A stretch of DNA of 64,000 nucleotides from Alphaproteobacteria bacterium. GTDB lineage: Bacteria > Pseudomonadota > Alphaproteobacteria > UBA7887. Of this stretch, positions 5,577 through 36,140 are shown piece after piece. The notes beneath the pieces are model-generated. The model saw only the letters and a list, made by a program, of their open reading frames with translations. It had not been told where the DNA came from and ran no database searches. Position numbers and translations under genes: made by a program. The stretch covers positions 4,512,001 to 4,576,000 of the forward strand of contig CBDCGL010000011.1 in NCBI GenBank assembly GCA_965216755.1, given 5' to 3'. The stretch's first letter is position 1. Each line of letters begins with the position of its first letter.

Positions 5577-5590
5577 GGAGTAGGCAGATT

Positions 5591-7473: not shown

Positions 7474-7481
7474 CGAGCGGT

Positions 7482-11277: not shown

Positions 11278-11325
11278 ATAATGTCGTTTCGGTATCGAGT
11301 TAGGCAGCGTCTGGCCGGGACCCGC

Positions 11326-12285
11326 TTAGAGCGGATCCACAGCCGTGAAATCGCCGATGCCGACACCGATCGCGTCGGCCTGATTGATCGCCGTGCCGGA
11401 ACCACGCAAGACTTCGTAGTAGCCGAGGTTCTGTTGAACGTCGTCTTCGGCGAGGTCGCGGCGCGCAACCTCTGCCGCTTTCTCGGGTTGGCCGGCAAGC
11501 CCGTAGGCAAGCGCCAGATTTTGGCGATGGCGGGGCGTGGCGTCGGGCCCGGTGGCCAATTCAGACAGCGTTTCAATGGCGGCGTCGTAGTCACCGCTCA
11601 ACGCCAGGGACAGGCCCAAATTGCCACGGACAGACTCGTCATTGGGCGCCAGGGCCATGGCTTGACGGTAGTGCTTTTGCGCTTCGCCAAACTGGCCGGC
11701 TTTATCCCGCGCGACCCCCATGCTGTTCAAGGCGCGCACATCAGCCGGGTTTTTTGCCAACACAACATTCAGCTTTTCGACCGCAAGTTCGGTCTGGTCA
11801 AGCTGAATCAGGGCATTGGCCAGGCCGCGCAAGGCTTGGCTGTTATCTGGCACGAAGTCCAACGCTTCGCGGAAAGTTTCGGCGGCTTCGTTTGGTTGGC
11901 CGATCGCCGCCAACGTTTCTCCCAGGCCGATCAGCGGCACGGGGTCTTGCGGGGCAAAAGCAAGCGCACGGCGATAGAGATTGATGGCCGTTGCGTATTC
12001 ACCGCGGGCGCGCGCGTTGTCCGCAACACGCACTATGGCCGCGGCCGGGCCTTCCACCTGGGCGCCATCTTCGGCGGCTTCGGCGGGTGGCCAAACGTCC
12101 TTGCTGTTCTTCTGGACATGGTTTGTGTACATGTCCGTGCACGCACCCAGCATGAGAGCCAGGACACTGCACGCGATCATCGGGCGGTCGAAACGGCGGC
12201 TCGACTTTCTCTCATTGGCATCGCCCCGAACGGATTGGTCGGGGCCAAGATCATGGGTACCTTGCAATGCTAACCGTAACGTCAC
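11326..12285 (-). CDS. tadD: TPR lipoprotein, TadD/CpaO-like pilotin
   Basis: Lipobox LGAC, TPR repeats, NLGLSLALSG and RQNLALAYGLAG; exact start uncertain (12180-12285). Confidence 0.85.
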   Translation of the reverse strand: MTLRLALQGTHDLGPDQSVRGDANERKSSRRFDRPMIACSVLALMLGACTDMYTNHVQKNSKDVWPPAEAAEDGAQVEGPAAAIVRVADNARARGEYATAINLYRRALAFAPQDPVPLIGLGETLAAIGQPNEAAETFREALDFVPDNSQALRGLANALIQLDQTELAVEKLNVVLAKNPADVRALNSMGVARDKAGQFGEAQKHYRQAMALAPNDESVRGNLGLSLALSGDYDAAIETLSELATGPDATPRHRQNLALAYGLAGQPEKAAEVARRDLAEDDVQQNLGYYEVLRGSGTAINQADAIGVGIGDFTAVDPL

Positions 12286-16637: not shown

Positions 16638-16658
16638 GCTCTGGGTAGGCTAGCCGCC

Positions 16659-20925: not shown

Positions 20926-23421
20926 TCAATCGGCAGAAGGCGGCGTCTGTGACAGGGCCAGTGGCGCGGCAGCCAGCGCCGGCGGAAAGTCTCCGATATG
21001 GTAGTTGTGGCATTCCGTGCAGCGATCGCCGGCCAGTTCATGCTTATGGCATGCAGCGCAGGTTGATTTGTCCAATGAACGGAAATTACTCGCGAATTGG
21101 GCGGGTTGGCGGTGGTCAAAACTGGCCATGTACGCTGCTGCCGGATCCAGGATGTGGCAAGTGAGGCATCCGGCCTCGTTCAACAGGCTGAAATGGGGGA
21201 CATGCGCGTAGACGCTGAATCGCTTGTCATTTGGCTGTGGCGGCACGGTCAGCCAATTGATGAGGAACCCGCCATTTTGGCCCTTGCGGTCGTCGACGCT
21301 GTGGCACTTGGTACAGGAGCCGACTGTTTTTGAGTTGGTGAGTAGTTGTGCCAGCGGTGCGCCAAGGGGATCAGCGCCGCCGATCATGCCGGACAGGTCA
21401 AGCCATGCGCGCATGAACCCGTCGGCATGATCGCCAGGTCGGTAATACAAGCCATAGTCTTGCCGATACCAGCCGCCAGCATTGCTCCAGGCTTCTGGGG
21501 CGACCGGCCTTAGCGCTTGCGGCAGCGGTGTCACGTCCACGTCCGCCACCGGCGCCGACGCGCGGTCGTTGCTGTCCGGCATGTCGCCCGCGTTGCCGTC
21601 CGAAAGGCTGATTTCATCGTCGTCTGCCAGCAGTCCTTCGTCCCCCAGTAGGTCGCCGTCGTTGCCCAGCAGGTCGCCACCGTCTGCTAGCAAATCATCG
21701 CCCAGCAAATCACCATCGTCCGCCAGCAGATCGTCGTCGAGCAGGCCGCCAAGGTCGCCATTGTCGGCTTCCGCGGTCGGTGTATCGAATAGGGTCTCGG
21801 CATCGTCAGCGGCGCCGTCGCTGTCGAGCAGGCCGCCAAGGTCCAGCTCTTCCGTTGTTTGGGCGGGCGTCTCGGCAAGGTCACCAGTCGCCTCCGGTTC
21901 CGACACGTGGCTGGCGATTTCCGAGGCCGTTGGCCCCATGACGATGTCGCCCGCCGCGTGGCGCGCCAACTCGGTGCCCAAGTCTGGAAACCACTCGCTT
22001 TGTGCCGCCAAGACGGCATCGGTTGGCAGCATGCCGATCAATGATGCGACTTGGTCACTTGTTAGCTGTCGCCCAGCCACTCGTGACAGTCGATCGGCAT
22101 ATGCGTCGTGGCCGTCGACGACAATTGACCCGAGCATTTTTTTGACGCCCCACGCGACGCGGGCGACGGCGGCCAATTGGTGGTCGTCTGCGTCCAACAA
22201 ATCGAGCAGGTCCAGCGTCGACACCTCGTCCAGAGCGTCGGCGACATCGGGGTCCGCGGCCAGTAGCACACGCACGAAGGGCGTGATCGGGCCGTCGGCA
22301 TAATAGGGCCAATGGCCGATCTCAACATTGCGGGCGTCGAGGGTCTGCAGGTCCAGACCCGGCAACGCAATAACCGGCAGTCCTTTGACACCCGCGCGGC
22401 CCTCGCCGGCGATTTGTTTGCCGTGGCACGCGCGGCAAGTTTGGTCGAAGTCCTTCACCAGCATGTAGGCTCCGCCCGTGTCGGGTTCATGGCAGCCGGT
22501 GCAGGCCGTTGGCGCGTCGACGGTGTCCGGTTCCCTAAAATGCTTACCGATATGACCGACATGGTCGAAAATAATCCGCGTTCGCCTTTGATAAGGAAAC
22601 GACTCAAACTGCGGATGACCCTGGACAAACGTATCAAATGCTCTTTCGTGACATGTGTGGCAGTGCAGGTTGGAAATCTCGTCCAAGGTATAGCGCTGCC
22701 CGTGATGCTCTCGATGACACGTTGAACAGGCCAAATCTTGGTCCTTCGGCTGTTGGCCGAATACGAACTTGGCCACTGTCGGCATAATTGAAACTTGCTG
22801 CGGTCGTGGCATGTTCTGCAAGCGGGTCGTGACCGGCTTCAATGTTTCCGGCGCCAAGCTGTGTGCTTTGGTCGCGTAGTTGCCAAGCCGATGGCACGCA
22901 AGACATGGCGCGCTGTCTTCCGCTGCGCTCCGCGGTAAGAACGCTGCCTGCAGCCAGCCAATAAGTCCGTGCTCGGAACCAGTGTGGCATCCGTCGCAGG
23001 TCGCCACGTCGCCATGTTGATAGGTCACTTCGCCGGGCACGACCACACGCTCCGCCAGGCGACCATTGAGCAGTAAGAGGATGGCACCAACGGTCAGGCA
23101 CACAAGCCACAGTGTTGTCAAACCGCGTCGGGCACGATCACTACGTTTGGGGACGCAGCGGTCTATCGGACGGGCGCAGCGACCATCAGGAAGCGGGCCG
23201 TCGGTGCAACGGCCGCCATATTGCGGTGCACGCGTGCACGACCATCGATCGTCGGTATTGAGTGGAATGCATTCAAAATCGGCCCGGCATTGGCCACGCA
23301 AATCCGGTCCGATCCGGCATGTGCGACCGTCTTGGGCGCGTCCGCAGACCCATGGCTGCGACGGCCGTTCATAAGCACTTTCGCGGTGACCAAACCGCTG
23401 CCAAAGGGATGACATACTCAC
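20926..23421 (-). CDS. Membrane-anchored decaheme c-type cytochrome with N-terminal Cys-rich domain
   Basis: Ten CxxCH motifs (CDGCH, CLACH, CSTCH, CHTCH, CTGCH, CRACH, CTKCH, CLTCH, CAACH, CTECH); one TM after an 8-Cys N-terminal segment; acidic DLL(G/A) repeat linker. Confidence 0.9.
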   Translation of the reverse strand: MSMSSLWQRFGHRESAYERPSQPWVCGRAQDGRTCRIGPDLRGQCRADFECIPLNTDDRWSCTRAPQYGGRCTDGPLPDGRCARPIDRCVPKRSDRARRGLTTLWLVCLTVGAILLLLNGRLAERVVVPGEVTYQHGDVATCDGCHTGSEHGLIGWLQAAFLPRSAAEDSAPCLACHRLGNYATKAHSLAPETLKPVTTRLQNMPRPQQVSIMPTVAKFVFGQQPKDQDLACSTCHREHHGQRYTLDEISNLHCHTCHERAFDTFVQGHPQFESFPYQRRTRIIFDHVGHIGKHFREPDTVDAPTACTGCHEPDTGGAYMLVKDFDQTCRACHGKQIAGEGRAGVKGLPVIALPGLDLQTLDARNVEIGHWPYYADGPITPFVRVLLAADPDVADALDEVSTLDLLDLLDADDHQLAAVARVAWGVKKMLGSIVVDGHDAYADRLSRVAGRQLTSDQVASLIGMLPTDAVLAAQSEWFPDLGTELARHAAGDIVMGPTASEIASHVSEPEATGDLAETPAQTTEELDLGGLLDSDGAADDAETLFDTPTAEADNGDLGGLLDDDLLADDGDLLGDDLLADGGDLLGNDGDLLGDEGLLADDDEISLSDGNAGDMPDSNDRASAPVADVDVTPLPQALRPVAPEAWSNAGGWYRQDYGLYYRPGDHADGFMRAWLDLSGMIGGADPLGAPLAQLLTNSKTVGSCTKCHSVDDRKGQNGGFLINWLTVPPQPNDKRFSVYAHVPHFSLLNEAGCLTCHILDPAAAYMASFDHRQPAQFASNFRSLDKSTCAACHKHELAGDRCTECHNYHIGDFPPALAAAPLALSQTPPSAD
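21615..21850 (-). repeat. Intragenic acidic D-L-L-(G/A)-D peptide repeats
   Basis: DLGGLLD occurs twice, then DDLLADDGDLLGDDLLADGGDLLGNDGDLLGDEGLLADDDE. Confidence 0.85.
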
Positions 23422-23424
23422 GGC

Positions 23425-24249
23425 TTACGAGAACGCATAGACCAGGACAATATGAACCAAGATGAGGATCAGAAGCACGGTGCTGACTGGCACGTGGACA
23501 AACTGCCAACGGCGCAACAAAGATTGCATCGCGTATTGAAAATCCAAGTCGTCTTTTGTGCGCACCAAATCGGCAAGCTGGTCCATCACGGCGCACTCGC
23601 CAGCGTCCAGATAACGTTCGAGGCCGCGCATTTGATTGAGCAACCGGGTGCGTGGTCGGCCGGACAGCATGGCGTGGCGCCAGAAATTTCGGGGCCGATC
23701 AAAAAAGCTATGCAACTGGTCGCTGTAATAATCCGCGATCGTCGTCGAGCGGGCGTCCTTAACAGAATTGATCGCCAGAGCTTCGGCTTGCGTCGCCAGT
23801 TTGCGCCGGTAGATCGGAATCCGTTCGTAAACGACATTCTCACCCCGCACAGACAGCCGGGGCGGCACGGCGCGGAACAGAAGCCAACCGACCAAACCGC
23901 TGGCGACGACGAAAGCAAAAGCAATGGCGAGAACGGTTTCGAACGGCCCGTCCGGTACTTGCCAGTCGACGTGCACGCCGAAGAGAAACGCACAGACCAA
24001 GCCGATATAGACGTGCAGTTGCAGCCAAGCGGACGACGAACCCAACGGCAAAAACGGCAACCGCCGGCGAATTTGATAGCAAGCCAAGAAGAGGATCGTC
24101 AGAAACAATGTCCAGCCGGTCAAGAATGATGGATTGCGCAGCGTCGATGCATAGATCGCGTGCACGCCGGCGAGTACGATCACGATCACAACAGCCGTCC
24201 CCGCATGCACCATTCGGCGCCTGGCAAAGGTGATCATCTGTGGATCCAA
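23425..24249 (-). CDS. Integral membrane protein, probable diheme b cytochrome (ferric-reductase-like TM domain)
   Basis: About 5 hydrophobic helices; two helices each carry H-x13-H (HVYIGLVCAFLFGVH; HVPVSTVLLILILVH). Confidence 0.75.
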   Translation of the reverse strand: MDPQMITFARRRMVHAGTAVVIVIVLAGVHAIYASTLRNPSFLTGWTLFLTILFLACYQIRRRLPFLPLGSSSAWLQLHVYIGLVCAFLFGVHVDWQVPDGPFETVLAIAFAFVVASGLVGWLLFRAVPPRLSVRGENVVYERIPIYRRKLATQAEALAINSVKDARSTTIADYYSDQLHSFFDRPRNFWRHAMLSGRPRTRLLNQMRGLERYLDAGECAVMDQLADLVRTKDDLDFQYAMQSLLRRWQFVHVPVSTVLLILILVHIVLVYAFS

Positions 24250-25946
24250 GCCATCAACTTGTCCGGTGTTCTGAGATCGATGCGAACCAAGGCATCATTC
24301 GGACACGCGCGCTGGCACGCGGGACCACCCAATTGATCGGCACAAAGGTCGCATTTGGTTGCCCGCTCGATGGGCGCATTGGTGGCCTGATCGATGACGA
24401 ATTCGCCAGCCCGATTACGGATGTTCACCAACCGAATATTATTGTAGGGGCACGCACTCGCACAGGTCCCACAACCGATGCATGTGTCGTCGTTGATCAC
24501 CACAGTGCCGCCCTCTGTATCGCGGTGGATCGCGCCGGTTGGACAGCCGATGAGGCAGACCGGATCGACGCAATGCATGCAGGCATTGGCGATCATGAAA
24601 TGATCATAGTGCGGGCCGTGGCGGACAAATCGCGGGTTGTTGCCATGCGCGGCGGCGCACGCGCGCACGCATTCGTCGCAGCGTGTGCACCGGTCGACGT
24701 CGATGACCATAGTCTGTGTGCCGTTAATAAACCGATTGTCGACCAAAAACTCCAGCATGGCCGACTCGATGCGCCCTTCGGACGTGCCACGCTGCCACGC
24801 CGATTGAACGCCGCTGCGGGTTTCAACCGGTTCCGGCAGCGCCGCGGCCGGCATGGTTGGCAAAATGTGGTCGGCGACCAGATCACCGGGGATGCGCAGC
24901 ACGTCGACATATCCTGTCGCGCGCATGGTGCCTTGGAATGAAATCTGCTGATCGTTACGCCAATTGTGGACGATTTCCCTCAGGCCGAACGTGCCCCCGG
25001 GGCCCAAATAGCCGACCGTGCGATGGCCGTGGTCGACCCGTTCGGTGACCCGCGCAAATCCCGACCGCACAATAATCAAGCTATCGGCGTGTTCATCTTC
25101 GCCAGCGATAATCGGCTCGCCGGCGAGCCTTTCAGCATGTGTCCGTTCGCCCGCTGCCTTGTAGGCCGTGTACCATTCGAAACTGCCATAAGAGGCAAAC
25201 TGCGTGCGCGGCGCAATCTCCGCGATTTGCCCGGGGGTCAGGTGGGAGAGCAGGGGTGTGTCGCGAAGCTGGGCCGCCAAACTGCGCTCGCGATATAGCT
25301 GATCAATCTGTTCACGAAACTTGCGATCGCGACGGCGGATATCACGCAGACCTTGCCATCGAATTTCCAGCAGCTCCGAATCGCCGTCGGCGTAGATCGT
25401 TGCCGTTCGAGGCGCGCGCGATATGGCGCCAATCTCGCCGAACATTTCGCCCGCGCCTATGAGGGCGGTCCGATGGTTCTTCGTCACTTGCGCCGGATCG
25501 GGCAACGCGACGCGGATATCGTCGTCACCGTCGCCACGGACAATGACTTGCTCGCGCCGTCCCAAGTCACGGACTTCCGGTTGGCCAGGGTTGTTCCAAA
25601 GCTGGCTGATCGCCGACCACATCCCCCGCCGACTCGCTTCTTGGCGACCCAACGCTTTGGCAGGTAGCCGTGGGCCAAGCACGACCCGCGCGGCACCGGT
25701 CAGCACAACAAACGCCGAATTGCCATAATCCTCGGCGCGCACGACAATGTCGCCATAGCTATAACTGCGAATGCGCGTGTCATTGCGGATGATATCGCGC
25801 AAAGGCGCTGTATCTGGGAAGCTTGACGGATCGACTTGGGCAAAGGGATCGTGCGCCAAAACGCGATCAATGTCGGCTTCCGACATCGACGTGCTAAACG
25901 GATTTTCCCAACGGTCCGGACGATGAATTTCTACCGGTCGCGCCAT
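24234..25946 (-). CDS. Cyclic-nucleotide-binding (2 domains) + 4x[4Fe-4S] ferredoxin (NrfC/DmsB-like) fusion
   Basis: GEMFGEIGAISRAPRTATI phosphate-binding cassette; second degenerate cNMP domain; CTRCDECVRAC, CMHCVDPVCLIGCP, CIGCGTCASACP, KCDLC...PACQRACP; no signal peptide. Confidence 0.9.
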   Translation of the reverse strand: MARPVEIHRPDRWENPFSTSMSEADIDRVLAHDPFAQVDPSSFPDTAPLRDIIRNDTRIRSYSYGDIVVRAEDYGNSAFVVLTGAARVVLGPRLPAKALGRQEASRRGMWSAISQLWNNPGQPEVRDLGRREQVIVRGDGDDDIRVALPDPAQVTKNHRTALIGAGEMFGEIGAISRAPRTATIYADGDSELLEIRWQGLRDIRRRDRKFREQIDQLYRERSLAAQLRDTPLLSHLTPGQIAEIAPRTQFASYGSFEWYTAYKAAGERTHAERLAGEPIIAGEDEHADSLIIVRSGFARVTERVDHGHRTVGYLGPGGTFGLREIVHNWRNDQQISFQGTMRATGYVDVLRIPGDLVADHILPTMPAAALPEPVETRSGVQSAWQRGTSEGRIESAMLEFLVDNRFINGTQTMVIDVDRCTRCDECVRACAAAHGNNPRFVRHGPHYDHFMIANACMHCVDPVCLIGCPTGAIHRDTEGGTVVINDDTCIGCGTCASACPYNNIRLVNIRNRAGEFVIDQATNAPIERATKCDLCADQLGGPACQRACPNDALVRIDLRTPDKLMAWIHR

Positions 25947-25967: not shown

Positions 25968-27020
25968 CTAGCGGGCTGGCTTACCCTTGTAGCTTTCCGG
26001 CGCGGGAAGCAGGGCATCGAGCCCGGCAAGGTCGGCGCCGTCATTGGATTCGGCAAATTGTCGTGCGGCGGCTTCGATCTCATCGGCGGCCGCGTTCAGC
26101 GCATCCGCGTTGTTCAGCTTGAGTTTGACGCTGCCCGCGACCGCCAGCATGGCGTCAACCTCGGCAATCGACGCGGCTTTGCCGATTTGCTGCAGCCGCT
26201 GAGCCGCGGTCTTTGCCCGTTTTGCCATTGCCTTTGCATAGTCGGCGTTGGCCGTCGCCTTGGCGACGCCGCGCAGGGCGAATGTCAGGTCCAGGGCGCG
26301 CCCGACGACATACATGACGCGCTTGCGCGCGTCAGTCGCCTCGCGATTGGCTTTGCCTTCGGAAAACCAAATATTGTGACGCACTTCGCCTTGCGACCAG
26401 GCAACGAGCTCAAAAGCGCTGCCAGCCGGGTGGCCGCCTTCATTGACGAGTTTTTCCTCTGGCACGGTATGGCAGCCATAGCAGTTCGATGCCCAATCGA
26501 CGATCCACAACGGCCGGATCAATCCGGCAGCCTCGACCGTTGCTAGTCGTTCCGCCTTATGTTCAGGTGTCTCCGATTCTGCGGTGACATCCTTGCCGCC
26601 AAAATCGCTGTGGGGATCATTCCAATCCTTGGCCGCGCCGTGGCACGATTCACAACTGATTCCGGCAATTGCTTTTGTTTCACCGTCTGAAACAGCTTCG
26701 GTGAAATGACAACTCAGACAAACGCTCTCGTCTTTGATGCGGCGCAGGCCCAGCTTGTCGGCGATTTCGCGGGCCTTGTCCTCGCGCGGCATGGTCGTAA
26801 AGGTCTTGGCGTGATGCGTCTCTCGCCACACTTCGACCTCTTCCTTATGGCACTCGCCACACGTGTCGGGCCCCAGCACCATGGCCGGATCAGTTGCCGC
26901 ACCCCCAGCCGCGGCCGGTGCGGCCCAAAGCAGCATCACACCGCCGGCAACGGCGGCTGCCGCGCTGGCAAGTTGATTGTCCATGCCAGGACTTACACTC
27001 AAGGACATCTTGACCGGCAT
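25968..27020 (-). CDS. Periplasmic tetraheme c-type cytochrome (c554/c552-like) with helical C-terminal domain
   Basis: Signal-peptide-like N-terminus; CGECH, CLSCH, CESCHG, CYGCH. Confidence 0.88.
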   Translation of the reverse strand: MPVKMSLSVSPGMDNQLASAAAAVAGGVMLLWAAPAAAGGAATDPAMVLGPDTCGECHKEEVEVWRETHHAKTFTTMPREDKAREIADKLGLRRIKDESVCLSCHFTEAVSDGETKAIAGISCESCHGAAKDWNDPHSDFGGKDVTAESETPEHKAERLATVEAAGLIRPLWIVDWASNCYGCHTVPEEKLVNEGGHPAGSAFELVAWSQGEVRHNIWFSEGKANREATDARKRVMYVVGRALDLTFALRGVAKATANADYAKAMAKRAKTAAQRLQQIGKAASIAEVDAMLAVAGSVKLKLNNADALNAAADEIEAAARQFAESNDGADLAGLDALLPAPESYKGKPAR

Positions 27021-27135: not shown

Positions 27136-28407
27136 TTACGCATCAAGAACCAAGTCGGTCTTGGGAATCGCGATGCATGTCAGGCACGTACCGGCTTTGA
27201 CCTCGGCGGTCGGCTCAGTCAGATAGGTGACTTCGCCCGTCCGGATTGCCGTCACACAGGTTCCGCAATTGCCGACCCGGCAGCCAAAATCTATGGGTAC
27301 GGTGTTGGCTTGCGCCAGATCCAAAAGCGATCCTGCCGCGCCAGTCCATTTCGCCGTGCGGTTTGAGCGTTCAAAACTCACGGCCAAAGGGGTCTCGTCT
27401 TTGTCGTCGGCGACACCGGGTGCAGCGGCGCCTTGGACGCTGGCCGCCGCAAACGCTTCGCGATGCACGCGATCGTCCGGAACGCCCCATTTTCGGAGAT
27501 CCCCGCTCACTTGGGTCATCATCGCGGGCGGCCCGCAGATAAAGAAATCGTAGTTGGACGAGGGCAGTGTGTCTTTCAGATGATCGATCGAGATATGGCC
27601 CTTCAGATCGTAATCGGACTCGCCGTCCAGTCCCGGCCGTGGGCTGCTATAGGCGACGGTGACGTGAATGTTTTCGTTATCCAGATCAAAATCGCGTAGG
27701 CGCTCTTTGGTAAGATGCTCCAAGCCATTGCGCACACCGTAGAAAACCCAAACTTCACGCTTGCTGCCTGTTTCCACAATCGCGTCGAGCATGCTCAATA
27801 TGGGCGTGATGCCGATGCCGCCGGCGATCAACACCAAAGGCGAGTTTTCCAGCGGATCGATCGTGAAGTTGCCGCTGGGCGCGATCACGTCGATCAGGTC
27901 GCCCGCGTGCATGCCCCGATGCAAATGATTGGAAACCAGCCCCTCCGGCGCCGTATCGTTCTTGGCCGGGGCGGCCAGTCGCTTGACAGTGATTTGATAC
28001 TCGTCCGGCTCCGGCGTCCATTGCGACAGTGAATAGCAGCGCACCACCGGCCGCGGCTGGTCTTTCATGGCAAACCGAAAGGTCAGGAACTGGCCGGGTC
28101 GGTACGGGGGCAGGGGGCGATGATCGTGAGGCACCAAGCGAAACGAGGCGATATTGTCCGCTTCCGGAACGACTTCCGAGATTTCGAACTTGCGATAACC
28201 GCTCCAGCCAAAATTGACCCGATCCGTTTCCCCCTGAGTGGTCGCGGCCGCGGCCATCACATTTTGCCTGAGCACTTCCAGGGACAAGCGCCGCCGGTCG
28301 CGTTCGAAGGTCGAGCGCCTGGCAGATTCGACCAGCATCATCGTGGCTTGCGCCAATACCAACGCGATGATCAAGGCACCGGCAATTTGAACCAGCAATG
28401 CCATCAC
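27136..28407 (-). CDS. Membrane-anchored FAD/NAD(P)H oxidoreductase with C-terminal [2Fe-2S] (FNR/PDR-like)
   Basis: RCYSLS FAD motif, GLVSNHLH, AGGIGITP, FICGPP, GCRVGNCGTC...C plant-type ferredoxin; N-terminal TM; AGGAG RBS before GTG 28407/ATG 28404. Confidence 0.92.
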   Translation of the reverse strand: MMALLVQIAGALIIALVLAQATMMLVESARRSTFERDRRRLSLEVLRQNVMAAAATTQGETDRVNFGWSGYRKFEISEVVPEADNIASFRLVPHDHRPLPPYRPGQFLTFRFAMKDQPRPVVRCYSLSQWTPEPDEYQITVKRLAAPAKNDTAPEGLVSNHLHRGMHAGDLIDVIAPSGNFTIDPLENSPLVLIAGGIGITPILSMLDAIVETGSKREVWVFYGVRNGLEHLTKERLRDFDLDNENIHVTVAYSSPRPGLDGESDYDLKGHISIDHLKDTLPSSNYDFFICGPPAMMTQVSGDLRKWGVPDDRVHREAFAAASVQGAAAPGVADDKDETPLAVSFERSNRTAKWTGAAGSLLDLAQANTVPIDFGCRVGNCGTCVTAIRTGEVTYLTEPTAEVKAGTCLTCIAIPKTDLVLDA

Positions 28408-28468
28408 GCGCGTGGCTCCTTGGTTGGTCTTGACGATGGGACGTTCACGGCAGCCAGACCGAGTAGAA

Positions 28469-29887
28469 CTAGAACTTAACCTGAATCTCGGTTCGCGCGC
28501 CAAAACCGGCGCCCTCTGTCTCGGTCATCGAGCCGAACAAATCCAATTGCCAAAACGCCTGATTGTGAATTTGCAATTGATAGCGGCCGCCCAGCGCAAA
28601 CGCGTCTGAGTCAGACCCGTCGGCTGATTTCCGCGCGCCAAACTCAAGCACCAATTGTTCACGGTTGTTTGGGACCAAGAACCATTGGTGGCCGACCGAA
28701 AACCCGATAACGTCCTTGGCGCGATTGCTGAGCGCCGAACCAAAACGGCCGAGGCGCTGCGACGCGAACAGGATTCCGGCGCGTCCCAGCGGCCCGCCGA
28801 CCTGCGGATCACGGGCGGCCATGGTGAATTCATCCAATGCTGCGAACGCGGTGGCGTAGAGAATGTTGTCCGTACCCAAGGGTGTCGTCGACACATCGGC
28901 GAATAACAGATAGCCGTCCTTGGCAGCACGCGTGTCGCCGTCGAATGCCTGCGAGGTCATGAAGCGAAACGACGATGTCCAAAGCCCGAAACGTTGTACC
29001 GCGCTGAGACCCAAATAGGCCGCGTCACCGCCATTGTCGTCGGACGCCACATAGATTGCGTCCAAAGCCACGGTGCTCTTGTAAAAATCCGCCTCGTTGA
29101 ACAGCCCAAACAATTGCGCGTTGCTGTCCACGTCACTGTCGCCGCGGCTCACCTCGCCCCAACCATAAAGCCCAGAGACCCGCAAGTTCGCGCCGCCGGG
29201 AACGGTCAGGGAATTGCGCACGATGCCAATCGAGTCGAGCGCGGTATCGTCGATCAGGATCCCTTGTTGATAGGAGATCGCCTGACGCCCGACCGCAAAG
29301 CCATAGTCGAGGGTGCCGGAATCGTCCCGGTCCAGGTCGGGAAACAGTTCGCCGAAATCGCCTTCGAAAAACAGGGTGCGCACGTTGCCGTTGAAGCTTT
29401 CAAACGAGCCGCGCTCTGAGTCCGGCCCCAGCGTATAGCCGGTGTAGTTGACGCCTTGTCGCAACGGGTTGATTCCCAACAGCAATCTTTCCGTGCCCGT
29501 GAGCTGCAGATTGGCAAACAGATCGAGCGAGTTGGCCCATTCGGTGATTGGCTTGCGATCACCGCGGTCGAAGCTCTGCAAAGCCGTACGATAGGTTCCA
29601 AAGACCCACAAGGACGGTCGCCAGACGGCGCCGGTTGGCAGTTCCCAGCCCGGCTCGATATTGCCGACTTCCAGGAACGGGTCGCCAAATATCACCAGTG
29701 GTTTCGCCTGTGGCGGCAGCTCATCGACGACGTAGGGTACGGGCTCATCGGGTAGACTACGGCCGTAGATGCTGACCGCCGCGTCAACGGACCCGCATTC
29801 GAACGCCACCCATCCCGCCGCTCCAGCGATCGCCCATGCTGTAAAGTGCCACCGTCGGCGACACCAATCGCCCACCCGTTCCGCCAT
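28469..29887 (-). CDS. Putative outer-membrane beta-barrel (porin-like)
   Basis: Signal-like N-terminus, alternating amphipathic beta strands, C-terminal EIQVKF (terminal Phe); lies between cytochrome genes. Confidence 0.72.
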   Translation of the reverse strand: MAERVGDWCRRRWHFTAWAIAGAAGWVAFECGSVDAAVSIYGRSLPDEPVPYVVDELPPQAKPLVIFGDPFLEVGNIEPGWELPTGAVWRPSLWVFGTYRTALQSFDRGDRKPITEWANSLDLFANLQLTGTERLLLGINPLRQGVNYTGYTLGPDSERGSFESFNGNVRTLFFEGDFGELFPDLDRDDSGTLDYGFAVGRQAISYQQGILIDDTALDSIGIVRNSLTVPGGANLRVSGLYGWGEVSRGDSDVDSNAQLFGLFNEADFYKSTVALDAIYVASDDNGGDAAYLGLSAVQRFGLWTSSFRFMTSQAFDGDTRAAKDGYLLFADVSTTPLGTDNILYATAFAALDEFTMAARDPQVGGPLGRAGILFASQRLGRFGSALSNRAKDVIGFSVGHQWFLVPNNREQLVLEFGARKSADGSDSDAFALGGRYQLQIHNQAFWQLDLFGSMTETEGAGFGARTEIQVKF

Positions 29888-29907: not shown

Positions 29908-31842
29908 TTATTCGATTTCAAACTCGACTATCTTACGAGCGGCGACCGTGTGTCCGTCAACCAGGGCGTCGCCGACCGATCGTGGGCTCATGTTGAAGTC
30001 GAAGCCGACATCTTGAATTGCGTGGATCAAGTTTATCGGCACCATGCCAACAACGATTTCGACCTCAGCCGTGTAGGGACCGTAAACAATTAGTTCTTCA
30101 CCCGGCACCGTATAGGCGGTGCGGCGGCTGCCGAGCGGTTCGATGCCGCGCTTGTGGATGCGCGCGCTAAGTGGCCGACCGGTCAGAATGGTCGACCGTG
30201 TCGCCGGGCGAACAAACGGCAGCACATCGAGTGAATAGTTGGCGGCCAAGACTTGCTCGCGTTCGCCGCCGCGATTGTTCAGGGTCACAAAAAACGATTG
30301 CAGGCTATACAGCTGATCATCCAGCGGCACATCGCCACTGAGCACCAATTGCGAATGGGAATCGCGCAGGTCGCCGTTGCTGTCCAGGTCGCCAGAGACG
30401 AACACGGGTTGATCATCGCTGTCATATACGGTCACCCGCAGCCAGACGAGACGTTCCGCAATAAAGCCGGTCGGCACATTGTGTCCGTCGGTCCCGTTCC
30501 TAATTTCGACGTTGAGGCGAATGCCGTTGCGATCAGCTTTTTCAATGATCACCTCGCCGATCTTGAAGCCGGCACTGAGTACTTCTTGGCGCTTCGCCTT
30601 GGCCCAGGCGAGCAGCTCGAATTGGTCATCAAGGATATCGCGCGCGTCATAGCGATCATCGATCGTGCGCCAGCGTTCCGGAAATGTGTAATCCTCCGGC
30701 ACGTTGTCTTCGAACGAATCAGTGCCCCAACCGGCCTCATAATCGAACGTCAGCCACTCCTCCAACGTGGCCATGCGCGCGGCTTCGACATTGTGCGGAA
30801 AGATCCCCGGATGCACGATTGAATGGTCCGGACCGGCGAAATAATGATTGGTCAACTTGCGCGGCTCTGTCGCCACGCCGCCGATCTCTGCCGCCGGCCC
30901 GTGTTCGTATCCGGACACCACGCCCTGCACCTTGCCCATATGGCAATCGTGGCACGTGGCGCCGCCATCGGCACCGCTATTGCGCAAATCGTTGGCCGGT
31001 GACGTCTTGAATTCACTAAATGCTTCTTCCAGTCGAAACCCGTTGGGCAGTGTCACATCGTGGCAGGTACCGCAAAAGCCCGGCTCGACCATCTGGAAAA
31101 AACGTTCGGCCTCGGTGTGGATCTTGCGACCCGGCTGGTCCGCGTCGGTGACCACTTTGTAACGATTCCGGTTGTCGAGGACCCGATTGAGTTCGTCACC
31201 CCCCGTTGGGCCGCGCACCGGCTTTAGGATGTCGCCTTGGTCGATGGCCATGCGACCACTGATCTTGCCATACGCTTGGCTGACACGATGACAGACCACG
31301 CAGGTGATGCCTTCGCGTGACGTGGGATGCCGGTCGAGATTGTTAGTGGCGATGCCTTCGCCGAGATTCATGCCCACCTGGTTGTGACAGCGGATGCAGA
31401 AGTCACCCACCGTGCCACTCAGGCGATCATAGCTAAATCTCTGCATGGCCATGTAAATTGGGCTCAGCTGGGCATAGGAATGTTGTGAGACGGACCACTC
31501 GCGATAGTGTTTCGGGTGGCAGGTCATGCAGGTCGTCGCCGAGGGGTAGCGATCTTCCAGAAACAGGGCTTCGTGGGCCGCGGCCGCAGTCGAACCCGCT
31601 AGCGCACCCGGTTCGTCTTCAGCTTCAGTATCAGCGTCGGCCGTCGGTTCATCGAGTGGTACTTCGTCGTCGCCGAGCAAGTCGTCGCCACCCAAAAGGT
31701 CGTCGCCGCCGAGCAAGTCATCATCTGCAAGCAGCGTGTCGTCGCCAAGTAGGTTGTCATCTTGCGCAAGACTTGGCCCGGCCAAAGTAAGCGCCGCCGC
31801 CATGCCGATCGCCATAGCAACTCGCGAGAACCTGATTTGCAT
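29908..31842 (-). CDS. Exported pentaheme c-type cytochrome with C-terminal beta-rich domain
   Basis: Signal peptide (…GPSLA); CMTCH, CIRCH, CVVCH, CGTCH, CHDCH; GHNVPTG motif; N-terminal acidic DDLLGG repeats. Confidence 0.88.
   Translation of the reverse strand: MQIRFSRVAMAIGMAAALTLAGPSLAQDDNLLGDDTLLADDDLLGGDDLLGGDDLLGDDEVPLDEPTADADTEAEDEPGALAGSTAAAAHEALFLEDRYPSATTCMTCHPKHYREWSVSQHSYAQLSPIYMAMQRFSYDRLSGTVGDFCIRCHNQVGMNLGEGIATNNLDRHPTSREGITCVVCHRVSQAYGKISGRMAIDQGDILKPVRGPTGGDELNRVLDNRNRYKVVTDADQPGRKIHTEAERFFQMVEPGFCGTCHDVTLPNGFRLEEAFSEFKTSPANDLRNSGADGGATCHDCHMGKVQGVVSGYEHGPAAEIGGVATEPRKLTNHYFAGPDHSIVHPGIFPHNVEAARMATLEEWLTFDYEAGWGTDSFEDNVPEDYTFPERWRTIDDRYDARDILDDQFELLAWAKAKRQEVLSAGFKIGEVIIEKADRNGIRLNVEIRNGTDGHNVPTGFIAERLVWLRVTVYDSDDQPVFVSGDLDSNGDLRDSHSQLVLSGDVPLDDQLYSLQSFFVTLNNRGGEREQVLAANYSLDVLPFVRPATRSTILTGRPLSARIHKRGIEPLGSRRTAYTVPGEELIVYGPYTAEVEIVVGMVPINLIHAIQDVGFDFNMSPRSVGDALVDGHTVAARKIVEFEIE
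31660..31765 (-). repeat. Intragenic DDLLG(G) tandem repeat
   Basis: QDDNLLGDDTLLADDDLLGGDDLLGGDDLLGDDE immediately after the signal peptide. Confidence 0.85.
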
Positions 31843-31984
31843 CGGAAAATTCCCCGTTCCCTGACGTTTCCGAGCTTGCAACTTTGCCCTGAAACCGATC
31901 GACTCTCCACCACGTCTCATTATACGGCGATCGTGTTGAACCCGACCACCTCAACGCCATGTTAGGGGGCATGGCGCGCCTATC

Positions 31985-32000: not shown

Positions 32001-32134
32001 GCTGGAAGTCGCGGGCCGACGTCACAATATGGCCAGCTTGGCGGGCTAAATTGCACCATTCGCAGCGGTCGCCTGTCGATCGCGTATTGCGTATGCTGCT
32101 GCCAAATGACAACCAAAATGGGAGGCGCACAGTC

Positions 32135-32848
32135 ATGACTACCGGGCGTTTTGCACTCGCCTTTGTGGCGCTATCCGCCGTGATGCTGATCGATGCCGTG
32201 GCCGCACAGGCCGAGACGACATTTGTCTTGAGGATTCGGAATGTCAGCGAGGCCAATACCATGGCGCTCAGCGACGGCACGCGCGAGGCCGCGTTGTTGT
32301 CGTGGGGTGTTTATGCGATTCACGATAGCGGCACGCCGATCTTCACACCCGGTCAAGCGGCAGGAGGCGCGGGACTGGAACCTTTGGCGGAAGACGGCGT
32401 TGCGGACCAGTTGGCCGAATCGCTCCGGTCCGCGGCCGGTGTCAAGACAGCCGGCGTTCTGAAAGCTCGTTTGGTCGATGGCGTTCCGGTCATTCCCGCG
32501 GGCGGCCTGATGCGCGCGGTGGCCAAAGCCAATCCGGGCGACCGTTTGTCTTTCGCCGTGATGTTGGAACAATCCAATGACTTGTTCTATGCATTCGCTG
32601 AAACAGGGGTCCCTTTGTTTGATGATTCAGGCGCGCCGATTAGCGCTGATTTGACCCCGCAGATCATGCTTTGGGACGCCGGCACCGAGGTCAATCAGGA
32701 TCCCGGATTGGGGCCGGACACGGGCAACAACGAGCAAGAGCTGAACCAAGGCCCCGACGAAGGTGGTGTCGTGCGACTGGTGGACGACGGCTTTACCTAT
32801 CCGGCGATCGCCAATGTAATCAAGCTGACGGTTGAGCCGCGCGAATAG
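32135..32848 (+). CDS. Secreted spondin-N-domain protein
   Basis: Signal peptide; GLEPLAEDG, LSFAVMLEQSNDLF, WDAGTEVNQ. Confidence 0.85.
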   Translation: MTTGRFALAFVALSAVMLIDAVAAQAETTFVLRIRNVSEANTMALSDGTREAALLSWGVYAIHDSGTPIFTPGQAAGGAGLEPLAEDGVADQLAESLRSAAGVKTAGVLKARLVDGVPVIPAGGLMRAVAKANPGDRLSFAVMLEQSNDLFYAFAETGVPLFDDSGAPISADLTPQIMLWDAGTEVNQDPGLGPDTGNNEQELNQGPDEGGVVRLVDDGFTYPAIANVIKLTVEPRE

Positions 32849-35800
32849 GGACCGCGCCAGCCTGCAATTGGTGGAGCAGGTCGGCCGCACCAATCAAGTC
32901 CGGGCTGGTGAAACCTTCGCTAAACCAGTCGTAAACGGGCTTCAGTACGCAAATTGCGGCTGGGGTTTCACCTTGGGCGTGGCGTAAACGGGCGAGGGAC
33001 GTCGCGGCACGAAGTTCAAGCGACTTCTCGCCCTGTTCACGCGCGCTTTGCAGTGCGCTGCATAAGTCCTTTTTCGCCGCGTCGATGACAGAGTTGGGAA
33101 GGACACCACGCGTGCCCGCGGCCAATCGCAGTTCGCCGCGCAATCGGTAGAGTTCGGGCGCGATGGCCCGGCCGCCTTTGCCCGTTAAGCGGTCCAGCCC
33201 TTGCACAATCGCATCGTGCGCGGCGTCGTAACGACCGGCGCTGCACAGTGCTGTGGCTCGCGACGCAGAATAGAATGTTGACGGACCGCGTTGCCACATG
33301 GGTGCACCGGCTTCGAAGCCTCTGTCGATTTCGGCCAGGCCTGCCTCGATGTCGCCGGTTTCGACCATCGCCCAACCGCGATGGATCATGCTGTGGACGC
33401 GCCAGGTTGGGAAGTTGTGCTGTGTTGAGATAGCCAACGAGCGTTCGGCACGCGCCTTTAGCACATCCCACTGGCCCAACCGGGCATAGACCGATCCGCC
33501 GACGCTGAGAGCAAACGCTAGGCTAAACGGGTGGCCAATATGCTCTGCGGCCTCAAGGGCTGAATCCGCCGCCCGCGCGGCTTGATCAGGGTAGCCCAAA
33601 TACCATAGCACCAAAGCCAATACAGAGCGGCATACAACGCCGAGATCATTGAGTTGCGACCCGAGGATCTGACCGGCCTCGCTGGGTCGGTACATCAGTG
33701 AAGCACGCTCCAAATAGGCACGCGCTTTGACAATTTCGCCGTGATCATACAGGCACACACCGACAGCCGTATTGGCCGCCAGCGTGATTTCCGAGTCATC
33801 GACGCGCTCAGATAACGCCATGAGCCGTTCGGCATAGTGACGGGCCTCGCGCGCCCGTCCCGTGCTCAAATTGTGGCTATAAAAGCCAAGCAATGCGCGC
33901 GCTGTCTGCCGGTCATCGCCGAGTTCTTCGGCCAAAGCCAAAACGCGATCCAGGGATAGTCGAACCTGCGGCGCCGCGTAGCCGTGCGACGCGGCCAGCG
34001 CACCGGCACGCAGCGATCGTAAGCGCAGTTCCATGCATTTTTCGGCGCGACCCGAAGGCAACGTTTCCAGCCAGCCAAGACCTTTTTCCGTCTCGCTCAG
34101 CGCTTCGGCCATGGCGGCACTGCGCACGCTGCGTTCTGCGGCGCGGATGCAGTAGGTGAGCGCTTTGTCGAGCAAGCCGGCCGCCGCGTAGTGTCGGGCG
34201 ACGGTGCCCGGCGTCGCCTCGGCGATTCCAGGAAATTTCGTGGCCAGTGTGTCACCGATCGTGTGGTGATATTGCTGGCGTTTGCGTCTAAGCAGCGATT
34301 CGTAGGCGACGTCATGGATCAAGGCATGCCGGAAAACGTAAGACTCATCGGCGGTCGTTCGCCGTTTCGAAATGATGCCCGCGTTCACAAGCTGCGCAAG
34401 GGCGCCGCGCAATGCCGGTTCGGCCAGGGATGCGACGGATGCCAAGACATCGAAATTGAAGGTTCGACCGATCACCGACGCCAGCTGGGCGACATCTTTT
34501 GCGGCGCCGAGACCGTCAAGGCGTGCCATAAGCGAATCCTGCAGGGTCTCGGGGACGGCCAATACCGGATGTCTGTCGTTGTTGTCAGCGGATTCGGGGT
34601 CCTGTTCGGGATCACGCTGCAACAACATGCGCGTGACTTCCTCGAGAAATATGGGGACACCATCGGCGCGTTTGACAATTTTCGCGATGATCTCGGCGGG
34701 CAATCGCGCGGCACCTTCGATACCGTTGACGATCGCCGTAGCCTGATCGTTGTCCAGCCGTTTAAGGGGCAAATGCGCTACGTTCGGCAAATAGTGCCAG
34801 GGCGATTCATAGTCTGCGCGATGGGCGATCAACAGCAATATGCGGTGCGCAGGCGCCAGTTCGATAACGCGCTCAAAGAAGGCCGCCGTCGACGGGTCGA
34901 TCCAGTGGGCATCTTCCAGCACAATGAGCACCGGCTTTCGCGCGGCGATCGCCAACAATAGCGCGCACAGGCTCTCTAGCTTGCGTTCCTTCTGGTCAAT
35001 GCCGCTTGTCGCGGGCACTGCGAAGCGATCGTCAACCGGTACGGACAGCAACGCCGCAAACGCCGGCAAATGCGTTTCCACATCCAGTCCGAAGTGGCTC
35101 AACATCCGTTCCAGGCGCGCCTGCTTCTCCCCAACTTTCATTTCACGCGAGAATCCAAGACGCCGTTCCAAAGCGCGGATCAGCGGATGAAACGCGGTTG
35201 CGCTATGGTAAGTTGAGCAATAATGACGCAGCCAACTAAATTCTTGCGCTGAAAACTGCGCCCGCACGGCCGCAATAACGCGGGATTTGCCGATCCCAGG
35301 ATCACCAGTCAGTATGATCGTGCCGCCACGTCCTTCTTGCGTGCGGTCCCACGCTTGCGCGATCGCCTCAATTTCATGTGTGCGGCCGACCAACGGCGTC
35401 AGCGCACGGCCGACGGCGTCGAGACGGGTTGCGACATCCAGGCTTCCGTGCACCTCAAAGATCGGCATGGGTGCGTCAACGCCTCGCAAATCTTGCGATC
35501 CGCGGCCGACACAGTCGAAATATCCGGCGATCAGGCGATGGGTAGCCGCACTGACAAACACCGTATTTGGTGCAGCGGCGGCCTGGATGCGTGCGGCAAT
35601 ATTGGGGGTACCGCCAATGGCATCTTCCGAATTGAGCACGTCCGCGGTGTGCTCCTGACCGACAACAACGAGGCCGGAGTGGATGCCGACGCGGACCGAC
35701 AAGCCGGCGTCGTGATCCAGGTCCGCAACAACGTCGATGAGTTCCAATCCGGCTCGGACCGCCCGCTGCGCATCATCTTCGTGGGCGCTTGGATAACCGA

Positions 35801-36140
35801 AATAGACCAGGATCCCGTCGCCATAGAACTGGGCGACATAGCCCTCGTGCCCAGCGACGACACGGTTAGCCGTGGCACGATAGGTGCCCATGATTTCACG
35901 ATAGTCCTCTGGGTCCACGCTTTGTGACAGCGCGGTCGAGCCGACCAAATCGCAAAACATGACAGTTAAGTGGCGTCGTTCCGCGCCGCCACGTCTCGGA
36001 ACCGGGCGCGCGCCAGCGTCCGATGGGTGGCGCGCGGCGTCTGCCCCGGAGACCGTACCGTCCAGCCGGTTGCCGCATTGGCCGCAGAACCGGAAACGCG
36101 GATCATTTGGATTGTCAAAGCCGCAATGGCCACATTTCAT
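32820..36140 (-). CDS. Class III adenylate/guanylate cyclase with double zinc ribbon, AAA/STAND ATPase and TPR domains
   Basis: CGHC/CGQC ribbon; VMFCDLVGST, YGDG, VRVGIHSG, NIAARIQ; GDPGIGKSR Walker A; LEDAHWID; C-terminal TPR region. Confidence 0.92.
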   Translation of the reverse strand: MKCGHCGFDNPNDPRFRFCGQCGNRLDGTVSGADAARHPSDAGARPVPRRGGAERRHLTVMFCDLVGSTALSQSVDPEDYREIMGTYRATANRVVAGHEGYVAQFYGDGILVYFGYPSAHEDDAQRAVRAGLELIDVVADLDHDAGLSVRVGIHSGLVVVGQEHTADVLNSEDAIGGTPNIAARIQAAAAPNTVFVSAATHRLIAGYFDCVGRGSQDLRGVDAPMPIFEVHGSLDVATRLDAVGRALTPLVGRTHEIEAIAQAWDRTQEGRGGTIILTGDPGIGKSRVIAAVRAQFSAQEFSWLRHYCSTYHSATAFHPLIRALERRLGFSREMKVGEKQARLERMLSHFGLDVETHLPAFAALLSVPVDDRFAVPATSGIDQKERKLESLCALLLAIAARKPVLIVLEDAHWIDPSTAAFFERVIELAPAHRILLLIAHRADYESPWHYLPNVAHLPLKRLDNDQATAIVNGIEGAARLPAEIIAKIVKRADGVPIFLEEVTRMLLQRDPEQDPESADNNDRHPVLAVPETLQDSLMARLDGLGAAKDVAQLASVIGRTFNFDVLASVASLAEPALRGALAQLVNAGIISKRRTTADESYVFRHALIHDVAYESLLRRKRQQYHHTIGDTLATKFPGIAEATPGTVARHYAAAGLLDKALTYCIRAAERSVRSAAMAEALSETEKGLGWLETLPSGRAEKCMELRLRSLRAGALAASHGYAAPQVRLSLDRVLALAEELGDDRQTARALLGFYSHNLSTGRAREARHYAERLMALSERVDDSEITLAANTAVGVCLYDHGEIVKARAYLERASLMYRPSEAGQILGSQLNDLGVVCRSVLALVLWYLGYPDQAARAADSALEAAEHIGHPFSLAFALSVGGSVYARLGQWDVLKARAERSLAISTQHNFPTWRVHSMIHRGWAMVETGDIEAGLAEIDRGFEAGAPMWQRGPSTFYSASRATALCSAGRYDAAHDAIVQGLDRLTGKGGRAIAPELYRLRGELRLAAGTRGVLPNSVIDAAKKDLCSALQSAREQGEKSLELRAATSLARLRHAQGETPAAICVLKPVYDWFSEGFTSPDLIGAADLLHQLQAGAVPIRAAQPSA

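Follow-up and report, generated by a model that had tools for sequence, protein, structure and literature searches.

Introduction

What does a protein do that joins two cyclic-nucleotide-binding (CNB) domains to a module with ligands for four iron-sulfur (Fe-S) clusters, and to which electron-transfer chain does it belong? The question is raised by a stretch of 64,000 nucleotides from an alphaproteobacterial genome (GenBank assembly GCA_965216755.1, contig CBDCGL010000011.1, positions 4,512,001 to 4,576,000), called the window here at its full length. An original prediction, made from the sequence alone, had placed at positions 24234..25946 a fusion of two cyclic nucleoside monophosphate (cNMP) binding domains with an NrfC/DmsB-type subunit, perhaps a redox relay gated by a second messenger. 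One open reading frame (ORF) does fill this interval, but the strand has to be corrected to minus, the plus-strand reading of 24234-25946 being interrupted by stops. The protein had also been handled as an isolated oddity, whereas it appears to be a subunit of an operon that already has a name, ptdABCDEFG (bioRxiv 10.1101/2023.11.21.568154). Since the gene order and the 5/4/10 haem counts match this operon, the gene is best identified, by its architecture and operon position as set against the preprint's description, as ptdE.

PtdE would be the cytoplasmic Fe-S subunit of the Ptd multihaem cytochrome system, which would carry electrons from NAD(P)H outwards under the control of a cNMP; we hold this overall reading with moderate confidence. 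The part of it in which PtdE relays electrons between the reductase PtdC and the membrane protein PtdF is probable, and the part in which a cyclic nucleotide controls PtdE lies close to an even chance, on the lower side. None of the computational tests made here contradicts a redox relay under ligand control.

Domain architecture and predicted structure of PtdE

The public gene call for PtdE begins at M21, 20 codons further downstream, and gives a protein of 550 residues that skips the DNA at 25887-25946. Residues 9-17 of the longer form follow the family consensus R-P-x-R-W-D-x-P-F. Because relatives align from residue 1-9 and this N-terminal motif is kept across the family, the start that gives 570 residues appears to be the better one. 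Pfam assigns cNMP_binding (E 1.4e-23) to two stretches of the protein and Fer4_7/Fer4_11 to residues 449-552. A scan of the genome with PF00027 also gives two separate matches in the ORF, at residues 159-206 (model positions 41-88) and 276-356 (model positions 7-81), where the residue numbers are our own arithmetic from the genome-scan coordinates.

The first domain, CNB-A, is built from an N-terminal half at about residues 49-91 and a C-terminal half after residue 158, and residues 92-158 come between them. Cyclic-nucleotide-binding domains are characterized by a phosphate-binding cassette with the motif Gly-Glu ... Arg-[Thr/Ser/Ala]-Ala. CNB-A has this motif, in the form F169-G170-E171...P179-R180-T181-A182, so that both the canonical FGE...PRTA cassette and the large insertion (67 residues) that had been noted for this domain are present. 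The second domain, CNB-B, has F320-G321-L322 and no Pro-Arg. The canonical Gly-Glu...Arg motif is therefore missing at G321-L322, and M-R342-A343-T344 is regained only past a longer helix and a lengthened loop. The earlier description of this domain as degenerate is right about FGL and the missing Pro-Arg, but since M-R342-A343-T344 is retained, "divergent" seems a fairer term than "dead".

PtdE has exactly 16 Cys, all of them inside four motifs: CxxCxxCxxxC at 420-430, CxxCxxxxCxxxCP at 456-468, CxxCxxCxxxC(P) at 489-499 and CxxCx8CxxxCP at 532-548. This is the four-cluster arrangement that had been read from the sequence. A Kyte-Doolittle scan of PtdE finds no hydrophobic segment, and twin arginine is absent from the first 40 residues as read by sequence, in agreement with the claim that the protein has no Tat or Sec signal.

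The AlphaFold2 model of PtdE, built from 73 homologues, has a mean predicted local distance difference test (pLDDT) score of 93.3 and a predicted template modelling (pTM) score of 0.89, with no segment below 50. The top Foldseek matches are the tandem CNB-A/B of protein kinase A (PKA) regulatory subunits and protein kinase G (PKG), with E from 7.8e-17 to about 1e-12. Aligned with VIA-align, residues 14-228 superpose on the cAMP-binding domain of MloK1 (2k0g; Z 14.9, root-mean-square deviation (rmsd) 3.0, 138 residues aligned) and residues 214-383 on CNB-B of PKG II (5bv6; Z 15.5, rmsd 3.5, 141 residues aligned). Both domains have the eight-stranded beta roll and the phosphate-binding cassette helix, by Foldseek and by VIA, and the structures against which they reach Z 14-15.5 are single CNB domains with cAMP or cGMP bound.

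The closest structural relatives of the Fe-S module (residues 408-570) by VIA-align are 9mqx_E (Z 12.4), HycB of HDCR (7qv7_G, Z 12.3), ArrB (6cz7_B, Z 12.1) and PsrB (2vpw_B, Z 11.5). AorA-type chains also lie within Z 11-12.4, and identity across the four-cluster matches is 30-35%. In a profile search with the Fe-S part, the best solved relative is HycB3 (7qv7_A, E 8.5e-29 over 412-564), followed by HycB4, ArrB (4.3e-21), FHL HycB, the AOR Fe-S subunit and PsrB (2vpw_B, 1.6e-13). PtdE reaches no NCBIfam equivalog cut-off: its scores are 65.3 against 1003 for AegA, 64.1 against 260 for HydN, 61.6 against 214.1 for DmsB and 50.5 against 377.6 for NrfC. By Pfam and NCBIfam scans, the 11 neighbouring proteins include neither a catalytic subunit of the molybdopterin, hydrogenase or NrfA kind nor an anchor of the NrfD/DmsC type. 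With equivalog scores far under the cut-offs and none of these partners at hand, the module is not an orthologue of DmsB, NrfC or HydN; what stands of the NrfC/DmsB label is the set of four-cluster motifs and the fold.

Conservation within the PtdE family

A word-indexed search with PtdE gives 4570 matches at E <= 0.001 among 8000 scored candidates. The best 119 that were listed (the window's own copy excluded) have 50-63% identity and the same Pfam architecture, and nearly all are full length, with 543-630 residues; where these listed homologues are named, it is only as "cyclic nucleotide-binding domain-containing protein" or an equivalent. An exhaustive search of representatives at 50% identity gives 7968 matches at E <= 0.001, including 593 at E <= 1e-30. 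The alignment used here combines the window protein with 72 near-full-length rows picked by hand, 7 from the word-indexed search and 65 of the 150 listed from the exhaustive search, and leaves out fused, truncated and split-match rows. Its members share only 31-63% identity.

All 16 Cys are invariant in the 73 aligned sequences. The CNB-A cassette is also well kept, with G170 in 71, E171 in 63, R180 in 65 and Thr or Ser at position 183 in 69 of the 73; the triad G170/E171/R180 occurs together in 57. In CNB-B, R342 is found in 45/73 and A343 in 65/73, and G321, E324 and R342 are jointly present in only 35/73, which fits one functional site per protein, the number originally proposed. The CNB-A insertion is present in every relative, at a length of 46-90 residues, and is poorly conserved except for E124 and R126.

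Some relatives have additional regions. FHA, a phosphothreonine-binding domain, is fused to three of 13 long PtdE forms scanned with Pfam (P0126, P0142 and P0233), either N-terminally or between the two CNB domains. These fusions are a further sign that signalling inputs converge on PtdE. Five others (P0171, P0178, P0184, P0206 and P0219) have 290-350 extra N-terminal residues, for which Pfam reports no family and, in the three scanned, neither does NCBIfam. These extensions have no resemblance to PtdC or another Ptd protein of the window.

The ptd operon and its conserved core

In the window, ptdE is the fifth of seven co-oriented, tightly spaced genes that run from 31920 to 20926 on the minus strand (Table 1), and it is a single-copy gene in the genome. 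The first, fourth and seventh genes of the operon contain 5, 4 and 10 CxxCH motifs. The available text of the preprint names ptdABCDEFG after its penta-, tetra- and deca-haem proteins, and the order in the window is the same: pentahaem protein, putative porin, FAD/NAD(P) reductase, tetrahaem protein, cNMP/Fe-S protein, membrane protein and decahaem protein (bioRxiv 10.1101/2023.11.21.568154). The product of ptdB has no Pfam or NCBIfam match; it is the preprint that terms it a porin. The likely start of ptdC is the ATG at 28404, which is preceded by a Shine-Dalgarno-like AGGAG. The transmembrane (TM) segment of PtdC is at 29-62. The start of ptdF overlaps the end of ptdE by 16 nt. A promoter and terminator scan of the operon finds fewer sites than in shuffled controls.

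The first 98 or so residues of the ptdG ORF (23128-23421) are Cys-rich, with 9 Cys ahead of the sole TM helix, and would be cytoplasmic if translated. These Cys are less than 90% conserved in 28 aligned homologues, so the true start of ptdG may lie further downstream.

A scan of one genome per species finds at least 443 PtdE relatives among at least 550 pattern matches, and the best 80 loci were taken for synteny. They span Planctomycetota, Verrucomicrobiota, Alpha-, Gamma- and Zetaproteobacteria, Nitrospinaceae, Elusimicrobia and others, and include metagenome-assembled genomes (MAGs) from lake, bog, groundwater and marine sources as well as three isolates. Cultured organisms that carry the genes include Tistlia consotensis (locus L039), Ferruginivarius sediminum (L002) and Aeoliella sp. 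(L076). Presence was counted within 10 kb, and some absences are contig ends. In tblastn with the window proteins, ptdF is found in 79 of the loci, ptdG in 78, ptdD in 71, ptdC in 69, ptdA in 34 and ptdB in 33. From these counts, therefore, the invariant core is C-D-E-F-G, above all E-F-G, and the cytochrome-porin pair A-B is accessory. The haem motif counts are kept as well: five in 30/32 complete PtdA ORFs, four in 53/67 of PtdD and ten in 67/70 of PtdG, and the four CxxCH motifs of PtdD are invariant in all 52 aligned sequences. In PtdC, C408, C413, C416 and C443 (CX4CX2CX26C) are present in 58/58, and the flavin and NAD motifs are conserved.

PtdE and PtdF are closely tied. Their ORFs overlap in 38 of 61 loci and are at most 40 nt apart in 58 of the 61. 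Among 27 listed representatives of at least 640 residues, two (P0125 and P0141) are clear PtdE-PtdF fusions; in P0125, residues 568-839 match PtdF with 40% identity (E 2e-59). P0177 carries part of PtdF, P0144 only a weak trace, and P0180 is an odd form without the Fe-S part. The long "F" ORFs of some loci (787 residues in L039) were considered as fusions and set aside as artefacts of open overlapping frames.

The PtdF alignment consists of the window copy and 60 ORFs from the loci, 19 of the 79 having been dropped for length or stops. H79, H93, H252 and H266 are invariant in all 61 sequences and form two i/i+14 pairs, on the third and the last helices. These four His suggest that PtdF is a di-haem b membrane conduit with two bis-His sites that would hold haem. 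By the positive-inside rule, applied by eye to the sequence, the N terminus and the helical domain at residues 133-246 are predicted to face the cytoplasm; H79 and H252 would then hold the inner haem, and H93 and H266 the outer one. This predicted topology fits the fusion of the C terminus of PtdE to the N terminus of PtdF. The AlphaFold2 model of PtdF has a pLDDT of 94.7. Pfam finds no Ferric_reduct match in PtdF, and DUF4405 (E 0.0015) stays under its cut-off.

Cyclase genes beside the cluster

A class III cyclase gene lies upstream of the operon in the window. Its product reaches 562 bits against the "TOMM system kinase/cyclase fusion" model, short of the cut-off of 705.75. PF00211 matches the genome (5.0 Mb) 33 times, 16 of them in open frames of about 1040-1160 residues that resemble the window cyclase, and PF00027 matches it only 10 times, two of them in PtdE. 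It thus holds far more cyclase domains than recognisable cNMP receptor domains.

Outside this genome the case for a link is stronger. In the 80 loci, tblastn with the window cyclase matches the region of the catalytic domain in 14. A local hidden Markov model, built from 12 of the segments matched in this way, detects a cyclase ORF no more than 10 kb from ptdE in 21 loci: 15 in Planctomycetota, three in Verrucomicrobiota and one each in Alpha-, Zeta- and "Delta"-proteobacteria. By our arithmetic from the densities in ten genomes, chance would put a cyclase in about 1-5% of 20-kb loci, that is 1-4 of 80, as compared with the 21 observed. Pfam confirms Guanylate_cyc in the three ptd-adjacent cyclases checked. 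One of the three, encoded in a MAG of the Zetaproteobacteria, is a REC-cyclase-metallophosphoesterase protein whose gene directly follows ptdG. Six genomes of Planctomycetota have 2, 5, 2, 3, 2 and 2 PF00211 matches, one in each genome being at the ptd locus, where the cyclase gene lies directly upstream of ptdC and is divergent from it.

On a quick maximum-likelihood tree of 74 PtdE rows, from which seven locus ORFs longer than 640 residues were dropped, the label "cyclase nearby" changes 13 times; at least nine of the changes are forced by well-supported branches, and none of 500 shuffles gives a number as low. Adjacency to a cyclase thus appears clustered on the tree and does not look like a single inherited event. 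One of the ptd-adjacent cyclases (L003:5327-7327) has an N-terminal sequence that is FHA-like when read by eye; Pfam reported no FHA there.

Proposed mechanism and alternatives

The observations are the domain architecture, ligand residues without variation in the alignments, a conserved gene neighbourhood, E-F fusion proteins and, in other lineages, cyclase genes near the cluster. From them we infer which cofactors are bound, in what order and direction the electrons move, where they end up, which ligand binds and that it gates the chain, as follows. Membrane-anchored PtdC would oxidise NAD(P)H through FAD and its [2Fe-2S] cluster. The four [4Fe-4S] clusters of PtdE would pass the electrons to PtdF, whose five helices and two stacked b haems would move them across the inner membrane to the periplasmic cytochromes, tetrahaem PtdD and decahaem PtdG. 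Where the cytochrome-porin pair PtdA/PtdB is present, it would be the exit at the outer membrane. The whole path would be a split, quinone-independent conduit.

In PKA-R-type proteins, binding of a cNMP moves the B/C helices. CNB-A, with its intact cassette, most likely binds cAMP or cGMP, and binding may move its B/C helices in the same way and so shift the Fe-S module or alter how it docks on PtdF or PtdC. The second messenger would thereby open or close a route that otherwise drains NAD(P)H. Outward flow along the membrane potential would conserve no energy; an unregulated conduit would drain NAD(P)H, and therefore a built-in switch has a rationale. In its most specific form, in which the cNMP comes from a dedicated cyclase, binds CNB-A and switches, post-translationally, a quinone-independent NAD(P)H conduit to extracellular or periplasmic acceptors, the proposal is tentative and falls somewhat short of an even chance.

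Several points weigh against the proposal. The Gly-Glu-Arg triad of CNB-A is missing in 16 of the 73 relatives, and because of this cNMP control cannot, judging from the alignment, be universal in the family. No cyclase is found within 10 kb in 59 of the 80 loci. In the window genome the adjoining cyclase is perhaps there by chance, about 0.2 PF00211 matches being expected per 31-kb span (our arithmetic); with 33 such matches genome-wide, of which it is one, and a divergent spondin-domain gene between it and the operon, it carries little weight and was rejected as evidence. The six genomes of Planctomycetota were picked after the neighbour had been seen, so that their counts are descriptive and not unbiased. 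For PtdF, Foldseek of the model against the PDB gives nothing at E <= 0.001. VIA places a designed di-haem bundle first (Z 12.6), in a range that the tool deems common for helical bundles, and the natural haem proteins likewise score only at the helical-bundle level: the Hyd-1 cytochrome b (4gd3_A) at Z 10.7, FdnI (1kqg_C) at 9.5, SpNOX (8qq7_A) at 9.2 and Dcytb at 9.1. The literature offers no experiment on any PtdE member that we could find, and in the preprint's own words the function of ptd "remains completely unknown" (bioRxiv 10.1101/2023.11.21.568154).

The relay may be as proposed while the CNB domains have a different role, being structural, serving for docking or binding another small molecule. 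Several folds of the CRP/FNR type do bind other small molecules. The relatives without the triad, the 35/73 for its CNB-B equivalent and the loci without a cyclase are all as expected if the domains are not cNMP switches; the insertion present in 73/73 could serve docking, and at a pTM of 0.89 the CNB domains pack tightly on the remainder of PtdE. It is hard, however, to explain without a phosphate-ribose ligand why FGE-x8-PR[TS]A[TS] is kept among proteins of 31-63% identity, and cyclases recur beside the cluster in genomes that have only 2-5 cyclase-domain matches. We consider this alternative unlikely. A redox sensor is a further possible role for PtdE, with Fe-S clusters that would sense redox state, CNB domains that would hand the signal on, and no through-wire. 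Fe-S clusters act as sensors in some proteins of the CRP/FNR family, and the FHA signalling domains fused to some relatives would suit such a function. PtdE, however, has no DNA-binding or enzymatic output domain that Pfam or NCBIfam recognises, its four-cluster module is of the HycB/ArrB/PsrB relay type, and its gene is translationally coupled or fused to that of a membrane protein with four invariant His, all of which makes the sensor very improbable.

The chain may also run inwards, from donors in the periplasm or outside the cell through the cytochromes, PtdF and PtdE to PtdC, which would reduce NAD(P)+, or it may serve periplasmic nitrogen-oxide chemistry instead of export to an external acceptor. 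Chains driven by NAD(P)H usually begin with an FNR-type reductase that has a [2Fe-2S] domain, and PtdC is of this type, which speaks against inward flow. Reduction of NAD(P)+ from haem-level potentials would moreover be uphill, and Pfam and NCBIfam show no obvious energy-coupling subunit in the cluster. In favour of this alternative, no more than 34 and 33 of the 80 loci have ptdA and ptdB, respectively, within 10 kb, so that the outer-membrane part looks dispensable. The preprint's available text records ptd genes from nitrite oxidisers and connects PtdA with NrfA by COG, and considers such a role too (bioRxiv 10.1101/2023.11.21.568154). We regard the inward or nitrogen-oxide chain as improbable, and the outward, cNMP-controlled path from NAD(P)H is retained as the working model.

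Features of the window

The coordinates of the features are collected in Table 1. Between the operon and the cyclase gene, and divergent from ptdA, is a gene for a 265-residue spondin-domain protein (32051-32848, plus strand; NF038123, E 1.1e-29). Beyond the end of ptdG are a Tad/Flp-type pilus set (RcpC/CpaB, secretin, ATPase and two T2SSF proteins) and a TamA/TamB pair, at 3205-12273 and 14802-20915 on the plus strand; the TamB gene and ptdG are convergent, with ends 10 nt apart. At 49501-50502 on the plus strand, a 333-residue protein matches Pfam Volactin from end to end (E 6.3e-78).

Table 1. Positions of ptdE, its domains, the other ptd genes and the cyclase gene in the window
Feature	Coordinates	Strand	Description
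ptdE	24234..25946	minus	Single ORF, 570 residues; two cNMP-binding domains and a 4x[4Fe-4S] module
CNB-A, including B/C helices	25257..25802	minus	Residues ~49-230; from structural match to MloK1 2k0g and secondary structure
CNB-A insertion	25473..25673	minus	Residues 92-158 (67 residues), between the fourth and fifth beta strands; Pfam/PF00027 matches split there
CNB-A phosphate-binding cassette	25398..25442	minus	Residues 169-183, FGEIGAISRAPRTAT
CNB-B	24855..25256	minus	Residues ~231-364, divergent cassette FGL...MRAT; best Pfam stretch 276-356
Four-cluster ferredoxin module	24237..24725	minus	Residues 408-570, 16 Cys
ptdA	29908..31920	minus	Pentahaem cytochrome c, 670 residues; 5 CxxCH
ptdB	28469..29887	minus	Putative outer-membrane porin, 472 residues; sequence ends ...QVKF
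ptdC	27136..28503	minus	ORF of 455 residues; FAD/NAD(P) reductase with N-terminal TM helix and C-terminal [2Fe-2S]; Pfam FAD_binding_6, NAD_binding_1, Fer2
ptdD	25968..27020	minus	Tetrahaem cytochrome c, 350 residues, N-terminal signal or anchor; 4 CxxCH; Pfam Cytochrome_C554, E 9.6e-15
ptdF	23425..24249	minus	Membrane protein, 274 residues, ~5 TM helices (hydropathy); probable di-haem b
ptdG	20926..23421	minus	Decahaem cytochrome c, 831 residues, one TM anchor; 10 CxxCH
Class III cyclase gene	32820..36140	minus	Cyclase-AAA_16-TPR protein, 1106 residues; Pfam Guanylate_cyc, E 3.7e-19; upstream of the operon

Significance

If the proposal is true, Ptd is a widespread route that sends cytoplasmic reducing power across the envelope and bypasses the quinone pool, and PtdE is the point at which a second messenger controls it. 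This would be a new class of output for cyclic-nucleotide signalling, the first in which a cNMP acts on an Fe-S relay rather than on a kinase, a channel or a transcription factor. Hundreds of species of Planctomycetota, Verrucomicrobiota and Proteobacteria would have the gate, and it would provide a handle on an abundant cytochrome system; ptdAB are reported to be highly transcribed in oxygen-deficient zones of the ocean (bioRxiv 10.1101/2023.11.21.568154). The value lies in the PtdE family and not in this locus, the window copy belonging to a family already named in the preprint. The gating idea, which we put forward as a hypothesis, appears unpublished as far as literature searches show: searches for the cNMP/Fe-S fusion under other wordings return nothing beyond the ptd preprint or unrelated papers.

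Comparison with known systems

The ptd genes are already named yet without biochemistry, and the window locus is one further copy of the family. The preprint's operon comes from marine or saline genomes, with PtdA as query, whereas the E-F-G core is found here also in MAGs of Verrucomicrobiota and Planctomycetota from lake, bog, groundwater and soil, in many cases with no ptdA or ptdB close by. The preprint gives two 4Fe-4S clusters, whereas the window PtdE has four complete motifs; and its available text says nothing about regulation, fusions of PtdE with PtdF or neighbouring cyclase genes (bioRxiv 10.1101/2023.11.21.568154). The present analysis thus adds to that account that the clusters number four and not two, that the E-F-G core is invariant and not confined to saline habitats, that PtdE and PtdF occur as fusions, that four His of PtdF are invariant, that the cassette of CNB-A is conserved and that a cyclase gene recurs beside the operon. 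A porin-multihaem cluster of Verrucomicrobia (He et al. 2017, PMC5615132) was considered as a possible ptd cluster and is a different one: its periplasmic cytochromes are octahaem, and the part of that paper available to us makes no mention of a cyclic nucleotide, 4Fe-4S or ferredoxin.

Among proteins of known structure, PtdE resembles two groups and may be described, by analogy, as a relay of the HycB/PsrB type to which a sensor of the PKA-R type is attached. With HycB, HydN, DmsB, NrfC, PsrB and ArrB it shares the fold and the 16 Cys in the pattern of groups I-IV, but it adds an N-terminal sensor region of 400 residues and has no Tat signal. With the tandem CNB domains of PKA-R and PKG, and with MloK1 and SthK, it shares the CNB fold, in tandem, and the FGE...PR[TS]A cassette of CNB-A. 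In contrast to these proteins, its output is an Fe-S module and not a kinase, channel or DNA-binding domain, its CNB-A bears the 67-residue insertion, and the cassette of its CNB-B is lengthened and has no Pro-Arg.

As a chain, Ptd is most like the NADPH oxidases and ferric reductases, and the systems of the Fre-MsrQ type, in which electrons pass from NAD(P)H through a flavoprotein in the cytoplasm to a stacked pair of b haems and so across the membrane. The logic would be the same, PtdF having two invariant His pairs on two helices, and the automatic Atlas cluster name for PtdF is ferric-reductase-like. The difference is that Ptd divides the parts among three proteins and places between them a four-cluster Fe-S wire together with its sensor.

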